From the NCBI GenBank assembly GCA_026552855.1, contig JAPMTX010000164.1:1216-33215 (forward strand): 32,000 nucleotides of DNA, written 5' to 3'. Every line of letters starts with the position of its first letter. Position 1 is the stretch's first letter. Source of the DNA: Candidatus Methanoperedens sp. Lineage in GTDB: Archaea > Halobacteriota > Methanosarcinia > Methanosarcinales > Methanoperedenaceae. The position numbers were made by a program, and so were the translations under genes. The notes beneath the pieces were generated by a model. The model saw nothing but the letters and a program-made list of their open reading frames with translations, ran no database searches and had not been told where the DNA came from. Shown one piece after another: positions 17,796 to 32,000 of this stretch.

Positions 17796-18770
17796 CTATA
17801 TGTCGATTTTAGTCGTTCTCCTGAGTAATACTGAGAAGGCGTCACGATATGATATCTTCTGCTTCAGCACTTCCATATCAACAGCTCCGAGGGCGTCGCC
17901 CGCAAATGCAATGGAGTTCCCCAGCATCTCAAGACGCTTCCCGATGGATGCGATATAAAAACCAAACCTTGTAGTGGTGTAAGGCAGACGAGCCGTTATC
18001 TTATACGGATCAGGATTATCGAGCAGCCCTGCCTCGCCGGTTAAATGTAGATCCCTTTTACCGAGGACCTTCTGCGCCAGCTCAAGATGGGACACTTTCT
18101 TTATTCCCATATAGGCTGAAGCTACAAGGTCTGTAGCTATAACATCATCCCCCGCGATGAAAACATTATCCTGCCTGGGCAGCCCGTCTACAGGTCCTCT
18201 CCCTTCCAGGCCCGTGTTTCCCTCGATTATGGTAAGATGCGGTCTGTAGAACTGTACCAGGTCTACAAGGATGCTGTCAAGGAATGGATGAAGGCTTTCC
18301 TTATCTTTCCTTGTGATCATGCCAAAGAGGTTTTTGGTCCCAAGACTGACTTTTGTAAATACATGTGTTTTCAATCTTGCCATGTTTATCAGGCACTCGC
18401 TCTCGTACAGAGTAAGGGGTACGTTAAGCATGCCTATTATCCTGCCGTTCACGTCCACTTTCACAGCATCATCCTTTGACAGGTTTACAACCCCGGCGCC
18501 TTCAAGTTCCGTGTATCCGAGCCTCTTAAAAGCGATGTCTGCGCGCAGGGCTGTGGCGTCGGATTCTACGACCTTTATCAGGGCATCAGGATTGATCTCC
18601 AGTATGCGATCTACTATCTTTTTTACAGACTCTACGCTCGTCGTTATCGGACAGGATGCGATGGTGCAGAGGTTTACCTTGATGACGTAATTATCGACTT
18701 TCGGGATATTTTTAAAAGCTGCTGCCAGCACTTCTTCTGAGTTTCTCCCGATGGTTACTGATGAGTTCAT
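17796..18770 (-). CDS. DUF362 domain protein
   Basis: The pattern IKVNL...T..., LKTH, KNLFG, and EG.GP.DG.P...IAGDD.IA.D matches the DUF362 family as I remember it. Confidence 0.6.
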   Translation of the reverse strand: MNSSVTIGRNSEEVLAAAFKNIPKVDNYVIKVNLCTIASCPITTSVESVKKIVDRILEINPDALIKVVESDATALRADIAFKRLGYTELEGAGVVNLSKDDAVKVDVNGRIIGMLNVPLTLYESECLINMARLKTHVFTKVSLGTKNLFGMITRKDKESLHPFLDSILVDLVQFYRPHLTIIEGNTGLEGRGPVDGLPRQDNVFIAGDDVIATDLVASAYMGIKKVSHLELAQKVLGKRDLHLTGEAGLLDNPDPYKITARLPYTTTRFGFYIASIGKRLEMLGNSIAFAGDALGAVDMEVLKQKISYRDAFSVLLRRTTKIDI

Positions 18771-19039
18771 ATGTTGCCATTCCTTATCCAGATAAGAATA
18801 GGTATACCTGTAAGGACTAACAGGACTATTCCGGCGTTAATAAGGGTGATCCTGACGCCCAGCAGCGAGTTCAGGAAAAAGATGCTTAATGTCGAAAGGG
18901 ATATCGACAGGGCGATCGATAAAGCCGCAAGCTCCAGGATATCCTTTTTCTCTTTCTCGAAGAGCAAAAGGCACCATGCCGCGCCGGGAACCAGGAACAG
19001 GAAAATGCCGCCCAGGACAGCCTGCAGTATCTCTATCAT
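18767..19039 (-). CDS. Small integral membrane protein (3 predicted TM helices)
   Basis: The sequence is hydrophobic. It has 4-nt overlaps with both neighbours (19036..19039 and 18767..18770), which suggests translational coupling. Confidence 0.55.
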   Translation of the reverse strand: MIEILQAVLGGIFLFLVPGAAWCLLLFEKEKKDILELAALSIALSISLSTLSIFFLNSLLGVRITLINAGIVLLVLTGIPILIWIRNGNI

Positions 19040-27726: not shown

Positions 27727-28032
27727 ATGGTTGGACTGGAAAGCTCGATGGATCTTGCGGAAACGGCTAAGAAAATCAAGAGACCTGAAGTCGGAAGTAC
27801 AGAAAGGGAGAGACAGAATAAGTTCCTTGCACAGTTGAGAGCCCGTAAACCGGTAAAGATAAAATCGGCTTCACCAGAGAAAAGAAAAGCGAAGCCGAAA
27901 AAAGGAAAGAAAATGAATAGAGCCAAGAAAGGTGAGACCTATTACTGTACGGTCTGCGGCTGTGAAATCATGTGCACAACCAGCAGCAAAAGCCCGATCG
28001 TCTGCTGCGATGAAGTAATGTACATATTTTAA
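27727..28032 (+). CDS. Desulforedoxin-like Fe(Cys)4 domain protein with a ~60-aa lysine/arginine-rich N-terminal extension
   Basis: The C-terminal YYCTVCGCEIMCTTSSKSPIVCCDEVM matches desulforedoxin spacing (C-x2-C-x15-CC, as in YKCelCGqvv...lvCCGedM). A strong AGGAGG SD lies 7 nt upstream of the ATG at 27727. Confidence 0.65.
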   Translation: MVGLESSMDLAETAKKIKRPEVGSTERERQNKFLAQLRARKPVKIKSASPEKRKAKPKKGKKMNRAKKGETYYCTVCGCEIMCTTSSKSPIVCCDEVMYIF

Positions 28033-28113
28033 TTCGCAGGTTTGCGGAATATATGCATTCCAAAAGCTTTATTAGAACATCATATACAATAGTGGATGAA
28101 GGAGGTTAGAACC

Positions 28114-28284
28114 ATGTGCAGTACATATGTGCCGTTCTCACTGATGCCTGAAGACCTGGAGCGTATGGCAAAAGAAAGCGGGATGTTCTATTGTACATCA
28201 TGCAAGAAGACATTCATGATGAAGAACCCCAGTACAAGCTGTCCGCACTGCGGCTCAGATAAGATAAAGCCAAGAGCCAGATGA
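28114..28284 (+). CDS. Small zinc-ribbon protein (56 aa)
   Basis: The motif is CTSC-x13-CPHC. A GGAGG SD lies 8 nt upstream of the ATG at 28114, so I prefer this start over the ORF-track start at 28096. Confidence 0.55.
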   Translation: MCSTYVPFSLMPEDLERMAKESGMFYCTSCKKTFMMKNPSTSCPHCGSDKIKPRAR

Positions 28285-28310
28285 ACATAAAAGAGACATG
28301 AAAAAGAGAA

Positions 28311-30482
28311 TCACCTGTTCTTAGCGTAGATAATGTTCCTGTCCATTAACCCCTGCAGGAGGCTCTTGCATTTCGATTCAGCCTCATCATTAGGAAGTTT
28401 GTACTTCTCTTTTATCGATTCAACTATTTCGGATACTTTGGATTCTCCCCTGCTCATCTCCAGTATATCCCTGGCAAAATCTGTTACAGTGAACACCCTG
28501 TTATTGTTGGTATCGAACAGTACGTTCACCCTTTCCTGCGCAAGCCCGTTCTTTTGAGCACTGCCAGCCATCATGTCATGTATTATCTGCGCAAGATTGA
28601 AATTGAACGTCCCTACAAAGACGCCTTCTTTGATTGATAGGTACTGCTTCCTGTTCTTCGGGTTAATGCCGACTTGCACTTTTTTTAATTGCTTCTTCTG
28701 TATCCTGTCAATCAGCATGGATATCTGCGGAACTCGATTTTTAGTCCTTTTGTAATGTGAGATATACAGGAAGAGGTGTTCCCTGTCAAGGTTGCTCCAG
28801 ACAGGAAAATCCCTGTACTTTAAGGAAAGCTCATTGTAGAACCCCTGTATAAGTGCGTCTGTTTCCTTCTTCGACATCCCGGAAGCTGTTTCATAATCGT
28901 ACCACAGGGAAATGTCAATATTATCGTCCTGGTTTACTCTCCCGACTTCGAACGATGATGGCGTCTCATATACTTTTGAATGTTTGGTGAGCTGAAAGCT
29001 GCCAAACGACATTGAGCGGATGATCGCGCGGTTTTGCAGGATGAAATCCATCGTCTCCCTTGCCTCCTCCCGCGTCTCAGTAGGGAACCCGAATATCAGG
29101 AAAAGGTGCGTCCAGATACCCGCCTCTGTACTGTACCTGCATATCTTCAATACATCCTCTTTTTTGATTCCCTTATCCATGCATTTCAGTACCCTCTCAT
29201 TGGCTGATTCCAGCCCGAAATAGAGCATCCTGCACCCTGCTTCAGAGAGCTTACTGCCGTATTCAGCAGAGAACGAGGGCTCAAACCTCGAATCCCCAAG
29301 CCACGATATTCCCAGCTTGTTACTTATTATCCTGTCAGAAAGGGCGCTCATCAGTTTTGTAGAGACCCCTTCATCCTGGAACGTAAAGAACCCTGTCTTA
29401 TATTTACTCTTCAGCGTCTCCAGGTCGTTGTAAAGCAGTTCAACGCTCCTCGGTCTGTAATTCCCTGAATAGCCGTATCCGTGGTCGCAGAACGTACACC
29501 GCTTCCAGTAGCATCCCCTGGATGAGAGCACCGGAAGTATCAGCTCGGGTGAAAAATACGCATCAAGGGGAAAACCATCGAAACACGGCGCAGGCAGCGA
29601 GTTTATATCCTCCCCTTCCGAACATATCCTGTTCATCCTGATAAGGTCCCCGTCCCTGTAGATAAGGTTCGGAACTTCCCTGACCTCAAGTTCATTGTCC
29701 AGGTGTTTGATAAGGCTAAGAAGCGCGGTCTCGCCCTCGTGTACGATCACGCTATCGAATACAGAGAACAGTTCTTTGTTCCGGCTTACCTCGTTTATAA
29801 GGCGCGTGAAGACGCTTCCACCGATGTTTATATGTACTTCTTTATCTGCTTTTTTAATAAGGTTCGCAAGCGTCAACCCGGGAATTAACTGGCTTGTATT
29901 GATTATTGAGATACCTATAAGATCCGCTCTGTCCCGCAGCAGTGCCGGGACCGTGTTTTTTTCAAAATAATCGATAAAAAGGTTCTCTTCCCGGTCATTG
30001 ACAGCCGAAAGTACTTCCCTGCTTGATCGGCACGAGTAGCGCATATCGTAGGAATGGAAGGTCAGGTTCGTGGGGTAGTATGCAGAAGATGCAAGTTTAA
30101 GACCAAGTTCAAGGAGTTTAAATGCCCTGAACAGTTCTTCTATATCGTAAAAATCCTCCTTATTCCTCAAAAGCCGTTTTGCATCCTCAACCTCGTTAAT
30201 AACGTATTCTCCAAAGAGCATGGAACTGCTAAGGGCAGCGTATTGCCCCTGAAGTTCGGGCAGCAGTTCTTTTTTAGAGTCCAGTTCCTGGAACCTCGAT
30301 TGCACTCTCTCAAAATGGTCATGAAGCCCCTGTTTGCTCAGAAGCGTATCATAAAATGATATATTGGCATCCATCTGTTCGACACTGCAGTGGCTGGCTT
30401 TTAAAAAGGCGGTCAGTGAAGGAAGACTTAAATAAGGCTGGGTTGGGATCCACTGGGGCGGGAAAACTAATCTCGTAAGCAT
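28311..30482 (-). CDS. B12-binding-domain radical SAM enzyme with PqqD/RRE-like C-terminal domain (723 aa)
   Basis: The cluster motif is SSRGCYWKRCTFCDHG (29487..29513). A B12-binding-type segment (DLIGISIINTSQLIPGLTLANLIKKADKEVHINIGGSVFT) lies upstream. The C-terminal NRVFTVTDFARDILEMSRGESKVSEIVESIKEKYKLPNDEAESKCKSLLQGLMDRNII matches the PqqD-like winged-helix pattern. Confidence 0.8.
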   Translation of the reverse strand: MLTRLVFPPQWIPTQPYLSLPSLTAFLKASHCSVEQMDANISFYDTLLSKQGLHDHFERVQSRFQELDSKKELLPELQGQYAALSSSMLFGEYVINEVEDAKRLLRNKEDFYDIEELFRAFKLLELGLKLASSAYYPTNLTFHSYDMRYSCRSSREVLSAVNDREENLFIDYFEKNTVPALLRDRADLIGISIINTSQLIPGLTLANLIKKADKEVHINIGGSVFTRLINEVSRNKELFSVFDSVIVHEGETALLSLIKHLDNELEVREVPNLIYRDGDLIRMNRICSEGEDINSLPAPCFDGFPLDAYFSPELILPVLSSRGCYWKRCTFCDHGYGYSGNYRPRSVELLYNDLETLKSKYKTGFFTFQDEGVSTKLMSALSDRIISNKLGISWLGDSRFEPSFSAEYGSKLSEAGCRMLYFGLESANERVLKCMDKGIKKEDVLKICRYSTEAGIWTHLFLIFGFPTETREEARETMDFILQNRAIIRSMSFGSFQLTKHSKVYETPSSFEVGRVNQDDNIDISLWYDYETASGMSKKETDALIQGFYNELSLKYRDFPVWSNLDREHLFLYISHYKRTKNRVPQISMLIDRIQKKQLKKVQVGINPKNRKQYLSIKEGVFVGTFNFNLAQIIHDMMAGSAQKNGLAQERVNVLFDTNNNRVFTVTDFARDILEMSRGESKVSEIVESIKEKYKLPNDEAESKCKSLLQGLMDRNIIYAKNR

Positions 30483-30540
30483 AAATCCACCATAAGCTTT
30501 ATGTGACCTAATAAAGATTTCATACTAAAAAGTGATTCCT

Positions 30541-30849
30541 ATGAATGATGACAAATCTAAATACGTTGGCGATGAATTCGCAGAAGAAAGTGAAACCGCG
30601 GTTAACGAGGAAGAAAAAGCACTTGAAGGAATGTATGATCTGGTATTGCCGCCGGGAGTTCCTCAAAAAGTAATCATGGAGGCTATAGATAAATTCAATT
30701 TAGAAGTTAAAACCCGTAAATGTGCGCTAAAAACCATAGATGTAGAAGCTGGGAATCTTCTTGTACTGCGCGGTGAATTAGAGGCAGTGAACAAAGCGCA
30801 TGATTATATTTACCAAAAAATTAGTGAAAAGTATAACTACAAGAAGTAG
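30541..30849 (+). CDS. Hypothetical acidic protein (102 aa from the ATG)
   Basis: This ORF is divergent from the radical SAM gene across a 58-nt spacer. I recognise no motif. The ORF-track start at 30532 is GTG, and an ATG follows at 30541. Confidence 0.45.
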   Translation: MNDDKSKYVGDEFAEESETAVNEEEKALEGMYDLVLPPGVPQKVIMEAIDKFNLEVKTRKCALKTIDVEAGNLLVLRGELEAVNKAHDYIYQKISEKYNYKK

Positions 30850-30905
30850 TAATATTTCTATATTTTTTAAATAATTCTATAAAAACTCTTTTTGATAAGG
30901 ATATT

Positions 30906-30920
30906 GGGGATTTAATCCCC
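30906..30920. terminator. Short hairpin ggggat-tta-atcccc between convergent genes, flanked by T-runs
   Basis: The two 6-nt arms are perfectly complementary. Oligo-T tracts lie at ~30863..30870 (plus strand) and downstream on the minus strand. Confidence 0.3.
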
Positions 30921-30929
30921 TCTTTCCCT

Positions 30930-31184
30930 TTAAAATAATCGCTGCTTGTTGATGGGTCTTGTGTAGCCGGTTCCACCGCATACAGTGCATGGAATTCCCT
31001 TCATCAGAAAACCTCTACCCTTGCACCACTGGCACTTTTGTGTCATGTCAACGACTTCCACCTTTCCGGAGCCGCCACAAACAATGCATTTCTGATCCTG
31101 GTGTTTGCCTGTCCCGTCACAGTACCTACAAGTTACTTCACCGGGTATCCTCTGCCTTTTTTCTTTTGGTTTTGCTTCTGCCAT
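30930..31184 (-). CDS. DnaJ-type cysteine-rich zinc-finger protein (84 aa)
   Basis: Four CxxCxGxG repeats (CRYCDGTG, CIVCGGSG, CQWCKGRG, CTVCGGTG). Confidence 0.7.
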   Translation of the reverse strand: MAEAKPKEKRQRIPGEVTCRYCDGTGKHQDQKCIVCGGSGKVEVVDMTQKCQWCKGRGFLMKGIPCTVCGGTGYTRPINKQRLF

Positions 31185-31286: not shown

Positions 31287-32000
31287 TTACTTTGCTGGGA
31301 TAACGAAGGCTCTCTCACCGGCGCAGCGGTCCCACTCTCTGAGTGCAGCCTTACCGAAGCATCCTCTTGGATCCGCGAAGTCGAAGTTGACTAACTCATC
31401 TGCGAAGCAGGCTTTGACCAGCGGGTTCACAACGAATGCATCCTTCTTTCCGGCGTGTGCTGCCTGAACTACTGCGGTGTATCCACCCTGATGTCCTACG
31501 TTCATTGCGTAGTTGGGGTAGTTAGCACCTCTGCACTCGCCTATGCAGCCCTCATCAGAGCCGAGCGAGAACACGTTGGTTGCGCCGCACTGATCCTGCA
31601 AGTCATACCCGTAGAATCCGAGTCTTCCGTGACCCTCTTTGTGGAGGTACATGCTCAGATACCATGCTGCTAGACCGGCATTGCTGTGTCCGGTTGCCAG
31701 AGCTGTTGCACCGCCTGCTGCCATTGCTACGGCTGTTGCTCTCAGTGAACCACCGAAATGGTCTTCCAGTGTTGTCGGGTACTTCTCGTATGCTTCAAGA
31801 CTGTACAATGTTGATTCTGTAGCGATATCTTTTACAGTTTCAATGGTGGCTTTTGCTTTGCTAAATCCACCGTACTTCTTAATTGCATAGTCAGTGCCCC
31901 AGTACAGGAAGTCGTCAAGGATATCGTTGCAGTATGCTGGTAATGCATACATTGTGAATCCGACGCCGCCTGACATGTAGCCGCCGAGCCATATCTGGTC
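31287..32000 (-). CDS. mcrA: Methyl-coenzyme M reductase alpha subunit, C-terminal ~237 aa (gene continues beyond the window)
   Basis: Diagnostic McrA blocks are present: (DQIWLGG)[57 protein letters not shown], and [10 protein letters not shown] at the C-terminus. The reading frame stays open to position 32000. Confidence 0.95.

Follow-up and report, generated by a model that had tools for sequence, protein, structure and literature searches.

The window analyzed here is a 32,000-nucleotide stretch of a Candidatus Methanoperedens contig (G000:C154:1216-33215), and this contig ends inside mcrA, the gene for the alpha subunit of MCR (methyl-coenzyme M reductase), by which almost all biological methane is made and consumed. 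The part of the gene that lies in the window (31287..32000, minus strand) comprises codons 327-563 and the TAA stop codon of a 563-codon gene. The frame is open from the window end to the stop, and the 237 encoded residues match the C-terminal domain of MCR alpha in Pfam (PF02249) with 201 bits (cut-off 25); the best PDB matches are the alpha chains of the ANME-2d MCRs 9qqt and 9qr1 (E 1e-143). The 5' part, encoding the first 351 residues, was found at the end of contig C72 of the same genome, and this end shares with the reverse complement of the C154 end an exact 78-nt overlap that spans the variant-specific codons for YALPAYCN. The joined gene follows mcrB-mcrD-mcrG on C72, where Pfam searches matched MCR_beta, MCR_D and MCR_gamma along with the N-terminal domain of MCR alpha (PF02745, MCR_alpha_N; 446 bits). 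The window gene thus supplies the alpha subunit in a complete mcrBDGA operon, which the assembler divided between two contigs. The GGVGFTxY segment and the motif that carries the thioglycine, didehydro-Asp and S-methyl-Cys sites (31584..31619, minus strand; read from the translation, with sites numbered according to PMC7581889) are both present in the fragment and invariant across the family alignment; the latter was described as intact when the sequence was first read, and so it is. In the trees, the window McrA falls inside the Methanoperedenaceae McrA clade, and full-length McrA from the closest species that share the leucine variant described below (G037, G030, G038, G022 and G018) are 94-96% identical to it.

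Downstream of mcrA, the window encodes an 84-aa protein with a DnaJ-type CxxCxGxG zinc finger (30930..31184, minus strand; Pfam PF00684), which is conserved at this place, a 105-aa open reading frame with no family match and conserved synteny (30532..30849, plus strand), and a 723-aa B12-binding radical SAM (rSAM) protein with a C-terminal PqqD peptide-recognition domain (28311..30482, minus strand; Pfam). The gene order in 27727-31184, including the N-terminal part of a 101-aa Cys-rich open reading frame, is found family-wide, even in genomes without the rSAM gene (G022, G001). A Borg or another extrachromosomal origin of the window was considered, as Methanoperedens is a host of these elements, and rejected: the G+C content of the window (0.40-0.49) matches that of the genome (0.458), and the synteny is kept in chromosomal contigs of the relatives.

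In the joined protein, residue 412 (86 in the fragment) is leucine, encoded by a CTG codon (31743..31745, minus strand), at the position of Gln400 of M. marburgensis, Gln420 of M. acetivorans and Val419 of the ANME-1 enzyme. The surrounding block aligns without gaps with every canonical MCR shown in the PDB search; the Gln420 partner was located by counting along 8gf5_A (M. acetivorans) from chain residue 329, with a 6-residue insertion included. Gln420 is equivalent to ANME-1 Val419 and to the (2-methyl)glutamine of other MCRs (PMC11256747), that is, Gln400 in the M. marburgensis numbering (PMC7581889), and in a modelled M. ruminantium enzyme this position is listed as lying within 5 Å of F430 (PMC12842094). 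The same contact table includes the GGVGFTQY segment and two McrG histidines; the equivalents of Thr335 and Thr339 are absent from it (PMC12842094). In the M. acetivorans numbering, Gln345 and Phe416 position the C17(2) substituents, and Gln420 clashes with these substituents (PMC11256747). The sequence-only reading, which had assigned the leucine to the Gln400 equivalent and had named a misalignment of this position as a possible refutation, is right: the PDB alignment to reference McrA sequences and the published correspondence (PMC11256747) place it at this site.

To delineate the distribution of the variant, 53 genomes of the same family were searched with the fragment, and 47 McrA sequences were extracted, with leucine at position 412 in 11 (the Leu type), glutamine in 35 (the Gln type), and one partial sequence (G041b) that ends short of the site. 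The Leu type accordingly accounts for about one-quarter of the species representatives, which answers in the negative the question of whether leucine is the norm for the whole of ANME-2d. When database sequences from NCBI, ENA, JGI and Logan assemblies, collected with a full-length Leu-type relative as the query, were added, the Leu type made up 18 of 107.

Leu412 does not come alone. In the window gene, it is accompanied, all on the minus strand, by Leu346 (codon TTA, 31941..31943; Thr335 in the M. marburgensis numbering, and ACA in all Gln-type genes), Cys350 (codon TGC, 31929..31931; Thr339 in the same numbering), one helical turn after 346, and Ala416 (31731..31733), one helical turn after Leu412, where the Gln type has Val or Thr. 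The three changes T346L, T350C and Q412L co-occur in 11/11 Leu-type McrA and in 0/35 Gln-type ones in the family alignment (the divergent G027 copy, one of 36 Gln-type rows, was left out of this count). In the larger set, all three are present in 18/18 Leu-type sequences, and none of the 80 Gln-type sequences has any of them; no sequence among the 107 has Leu412 without Leu346 and Cys350. Two further positions follow the same pattern less strictly, namely Ala416, found in 10 of the 11 Leu-type genomes, and Ala502, also in 10 of 11 and otherwise mostly Ser. To judge from these alignments, the co-variation of the three changes is far beyond chance, and L346, C350 and L412 (with A416 and A502) are the specific residues, characteristic of a sub-clade and not of the window gene alone. 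At the DNA level, the three codons are TTA/TGC/CTG in all 11 Leu-type genomes and ACA/ACC/CAG in the Gln type (with ACC once replaced by ACA), so that the passage from the Gln type to the Leu type amounts to five base changes, four of these in two double-hit codons (ACA to TTA alone takes two). A moderately confident AF2 model of the fragment (mean pLDDT 63) places 346/350 in a helix spanning residues 13-43 and 412/416 in a helix spanning residues 85-103 of the fragment. With standard textbook values for residue volumes, the four side chains sum to about 516 cubic angstroms in the Gln type (Thr+Thr+Gln+Val) vs about 531 in the Leu type (Leu+Cys+Leu+Ala).

Phylogenetic analysis shows a single origin of the variant. 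In the family tree, the Leu-type sequences are monophyletic even when the three trait columns are removed (SH-aLRT 98), and in a denser tree, the main Leu clade includes 17 sequences (SH-aLRT 96), with G032 outside. In that denser tree, the G032 McrA pairs with the Gln-type sequence P0134 (support 98); residues 1-307 encoded by the G032 gene (L024, L067) are identical to those of P0134, and the Leu-clade states appear at 309, 318, 319, 346, 350, 362, 412, 416, 417 and 502. The pattern is clear at the protein level and is matched weakly by DNA sliding windows. Given that the G032 gene has the Leu-clade states together with the same three codons, import of a Leu-type segment by recombination is indicated, rather than convergence, and the G032 mosaic mcrA probably arose by recombination between Methanoperedens lineages. 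Five genomes (G018, G037, G038, G012 and G032), with a completeness of 98-99%, have the Leu-type gene as their sole mcrA match, so it must be the enzyme with which these methanotrophs work.

Several genomes of the family carry more than one mcrA. Two full copies lie 36 kb apart in G047:C10 (55233-55940 and 91580-92287), two identical copies are present on contigs C8 and C34 of G046, and of the two in G039, on contigs C37 and C42, one is of the Leu type and the other of the Gln type. The genome from which the window comes has, on the 5-kb contig C23 (L001 514-3155), a second, divergent mcrA of the Gln type that is 85% identical to the window gene and is followed directly by mcrG; the two products have similar acidic tails (...ETETPMYDENL and ...ETETPIHDDDLYDLYAR). 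On G000:C144, at about 18583-18789 (L050 1583-1789), lies a decayed C-terminal remnant of an mcrA with the same kind of tail. The C23 copy groups (SH-aLRT 94) with a long-branched set of Methanoperedenaceae-like McrA (P0160, P0162, P0164, P0165, P0167, P0168 and P0172; L077 1105-3087) that are 570-676 aa long, most with N-terminal extensions, and several of which read GFTQYALPAYTDD. In the joint alignment, six members of this set have Leu at position 346 and P0168 has Met, and Gln412 is kept in all; P0162 is located among housekeeping genes, and the open reading frame adjacent to it is not McrG. Finally, G027 encodes, besides a normal mcrA, an extra McrA-like frame (G027:C106:1112-1768; L049) of 759 aa that is about 50% identical and contains one in-frame TGA.

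Other peculiarities of the window protein turned out to be common property of the family. The sequence-only reading had listed altered conserved blocks, and this stands for Leu346 and Cys350, which are specific to the sub-clade; the Met of GFTMY and the Pro of YAxPAY occur throughout ANME-2d. Of these two, Met343 (31950..31952, minus strand), in place of the canonical F430-anchoring Gln, has already been published. The extra cysteines that were pointed out are likewise all present, but the family as a whole has those of DEGCIGEC and DRCAGER (the latter motif is present in 7nkg, too) and that of VKxCFADE, and the cysteine of PRGCFGK varies within both the Gln and the Leu types. The crystallised enzymes 9qqt and 9qr1 already have VKxCFADE and EWDRCAGER. 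The suggestion that the VKACFADE cysteine is missing from Methanosarcina-type sequences does not hold, given that Methanosarcina reads LKVCFADE.

Two Gln-type ANME-2d MCRs have been solved at 0.98 Å (PDB 9QQT and 9QR1; Muller et al. 2025, PMC12413448). They contain canonical F430 and seven modifications, and 2(S)-methylglutamine is absent; a new modification, 3(S)-methylhistidine, was found on McrG His159, in the vicinity of both F430 and the Gln site, and is put forward as a possible compensation for the lack of methyl-Gln (PMC12413448). The study assigns no methyltransferase to it (PMC12413448). That study describes the ligand-coordinating residues as almost perfectly conserved, and mentions only a Gln-to-Met change and no Leu variant (PMC12413448). 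Consistent with the lack of 2(S)-methylglutamine in the solved enzymes, no orthologue of MgmA (TIGR04014, cut-off 360 bits) was found in any of the 53 family genomes, the best score being 144 bits; hence the premise that this glutamine is normally 2-methylated does not apply to ANME-2d. McrG shows no variation at His159 or in the His159 loop, the Leu clade included, and none of its positions in residues 80-249 separates the Leu type from the Gln type. The otherwise invariant McrG Trp146 is replaced by Pro in G030, G038, G022, G012 and G032 (L008, L009, L010, L012 and L024), with DWGLAG becoming CPGLAG or DPGLAG 11-13 residues before the His157/His159 loop; the window genome keeps Trp. In a literature search, neither an account of the Leu variant nor a methyltransferase assigned to methyl-His was found, and a review (PMC9118554) has nothing on the Leu412-equivalent residue.

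The rSAM gene is of interest in connection with these modifications. Its product scores 57 bits against TIGR04014 (MgmA), for which the cut-off is 360, and in NCBIfam, the families that it matches best, none above cut-off, are those of peptide C-methyltransferases. The order mcrA, zinc finger, 105-aa frame, rSAM is kept in both Gln- and Leu-type genomes. The sequence-only reading had argued that this neighbour is not a glutamine methyltransferase, and we concur, on better grounds: the score is low, the gene also adjoins Gln-type mcrA, and the glutamine of the solved Gln-type enzymes is unmethylated, so that the rSAM enzyme cannot be its methylase. Among the 11 Leu-type genomes, the orthologue of window 28311-30482 (L062-L072) is defective or absent in 6-7: only remnants survive in G018 and G012, no trace is left in G038 and G022, the gene is frameshifted in G021 and interrupted in G032, and the G039 copy contains a stop; it is intact in the window genome, G037, G030 and G041. 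Among the typed genomes, the gene is intact in 28/31 of the Gln type vs 4/10 of the Leu type (Fisher p = 0.003, uncorrected for shared ancestry). Counted as independent events, there are 3-5 losses in the Leu clade vs 3 elsewhere (G001, G014 and G010), with a binomial p from 0.06 to 0.004 that depends on a Leu-clade share of the tree length of about 0.16, which is possibly an underestimate, since some of the outgroup branch may have stayed in the total; we accordingly place no weight on these p values. Decay of the rSAM gene thus appears to be commoner in the Leu clade, a suggestive pattern that fits a relaxed need for methylation nearby.

Judging by its recurrence in related genomes, the Leu variant is natural, neither an error nor unique to the window gene. 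We consider it likely that the window gene encodes a functional methane-oxidising MCR of Methanoperedens whose F430 pocket is a hydrophobic variant specific to the clade, a polar cluster having been repacked and canonical F430 retained. Under this scenario, a single episode in one sub-lineage would have converted the polar Thr346/Thr350/Gln412/Val416 into the hydrophobic Leu/Cys/Leu/Ala beside F430, with 346/350 on one helix and 412/416 on the other, the members of either pair being separated by one turn. The four residues would be in mutual contact, as suggested by the helical periodicity, the 5 Å list and the published statement on the 17(2) pocket. The contact of the Gln amide with F430 would be lost without a new cavity being opened, with a small effect on function, perhaps fine-tuning, and the enzyme would most likely still bind canonical F430 and perform ordinary reverse methanogenesis; both the unmodified state of F430 and the smallness of the effect in the Leu type are what we infer. 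The nearly constant side-chain volume implies that the pocket would be repacked rather than enlarged, which makes an ANME-1-like cofactor cavity unlikely. Nevertheless, the stem branch is short and the five base changes crowd into two short segments, which suggests selection rather than drift, and the change may matter more than fine-tuning.

Several alternatives have to be weighed against this reading. The variant could be an assembly or sequencing artefact, or come from a decaying or contaminant gene copy, given that the contig breaks inside mcrA, that the metagenome-assembled genome (MAG) has an estimated contamination of 6.5% and a second mcrA on C23, and that one substitution suffices to turn CAG into CTG. 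This explanation is hardly credible: the same three codons recur in 10 other species-level genomes as well as in additional clusters from the databases, which rules out an artefact or a pseudogene, no stop interrupts the frame, the two contigs agree exactly where they overlap at the YALPAYCN codons, and the flanking genes are typical of Methanoperedens, with conserved synteny. A quite improbable alternative is that the Leu pocket is an adaptation to an F430 modified at or near C17(2), in parallel to the 17(2)-methylthio-F430 of ANME-1. There, the same position is substituted and Val419 makes room for the 17(2)-methylthio group; in the window protein, both polar residues that are said to position the 17(2) substituents have become hydrophobic (M. 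acetivorans Gln345 to Met, Gln420 to Leu), Leu is one heavy atom shorter in reach than Gln, and some divergent alkyl-CoM-reductase-like representatives have Leu or Ile at the site (these matches are mostly fragments). However, Leu is bulkier than Gln and comes with T-to-L, T-to-C and V-to-A replacements that leave the net volume nearly constant, if slightly up, whereas ANME-1 uses the short Val or Ala, keeps Thr339 and has a cysteine-rich patch, the motif of which is absent here; owing to these differences, a modified cofactor is not expected in the Leu type. Furthermore, the solved ANME-2d enzymes have canonical F430, and there is no known F430-modification gene to search for. The analogy with ANME-1 drawn in the sequence-only reading is weak.

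The decay of the rSAM gene brings up a different possibility, namely, that the packing otherwise provided by methyl-His159 of McrG has been taken over by the hydrophobic cluster as a genetically encoded replacement, so that the rSAM enzyme, as the candidate installer of this modification, becomes dispensable and its gene decays. The proximity of methyl-His159 to the Gln site and its proposed compensation for the absent methyl-Gln (PMC12413448) are compatible with such a substitution, as are the position of the rSAM gene next to the mcrA region in genomes of both types, its loss or breakage in G018, G012, G038, G022, G021 and G032 together with the stop in the G039 copy, and the excess of intact genes in the Gln type given above. 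We nonetheless regard it as rather unlikely, because the substrate of the rSAM enzyme is unproven, the gene is intact in four Leu-type genomes including that of the window, losses occurred outside the Leu clade as well (in G001 and G014, for example) and the independent losses inside the clade are few, frameshifts in MAGs can be assembly errors, and the Leu clade keeps McrG His159 and its loop as they are in the other genomes. A broader formulation, unlikely as well but still worth entertaining, is that Leu/Cys/Leu/Ala is an adaptive genetic alternative to tuning the F430 pocket by modification, either taking over the packing of the ANME-2d-specific methyl-His159 or making room for a slightly altered F430; it would be mobile between Methanoperedens lineages by recombination and would free the rSAM gene from selection.

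The cofactor-contacting residues of MCR are regarded as almost invariant, and here is a variant, maintained by a clade, that removes an F430-contacting glutamine that is methylated in other lineages, and with it three neighbouring residues are altered in concert. It amounts to a natural experiment on the role of this glutamine and its modification, of use to structural biologists and enzyme engineers, and it flags Methanoperedens enrichments for differences in the cofactor or in the modifications. The decay of the rSAM gene in the Leu clade additionally provides a comparative handle on the methyl-histidine methyltransferase.

Among the known systems, the most distant are the alkyl-CoM reductases and their divergent relatives, which are only about 32-36% identical to the window protein even though some have Leu or Ile at the site; ethyl-CoM reductase 7B1S is the weakest PDB match of the fragment (181 bits), and the window protein belongs inside the methane-MCR clade of Methanoperedens, so an alkane-type reductase was rejected. 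The sequence-only reading had recommended a comparison with alkyl-CoM reductases; nothing links the window gene to these enzymes. The ANME-1 MCR (3SQG, with 17(2)-methylthio-F430) resembles the window protein in having an aliphatic residue in place of Gln next to C17(2), but this is Val (Ala in a relative), the Gln of GFTQY and Thr339 are kept, the patch reads SVRACC where the window protein has none, the set of modifications differs, and the fragment scores 213 bits against it vs 480 bits against ANME-2d MCR. The Methanosarcina MCRs (1E6Y, 8GF5) come from the same order-level lineage and share the FGGS-x-RA block and the VKxCFADE cysteine, but have Gln420, GFTQY and the two threonines, and are without the DEGC and DRC cysteines. 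The closest are the ANME-2d MCRs 9QQT and 9QR1, which represent the same enzyme in the same genus and match the fragment over all 237 residues. They share with the window protein, whose 563 aa are typical of ANME-2d MCRs, the Met in GFTMY, the Pro in YAxPAY, the DEGCIGEC and DRCAGER cysteines and the intact modification motif, and the operon type and downstream neighbours are alike; the difference lies at 346/350/412/416, which are Thr/Thr/Gln/Val in the solved enzymes and Leu/Cys/Leu/Ala in the window protein.
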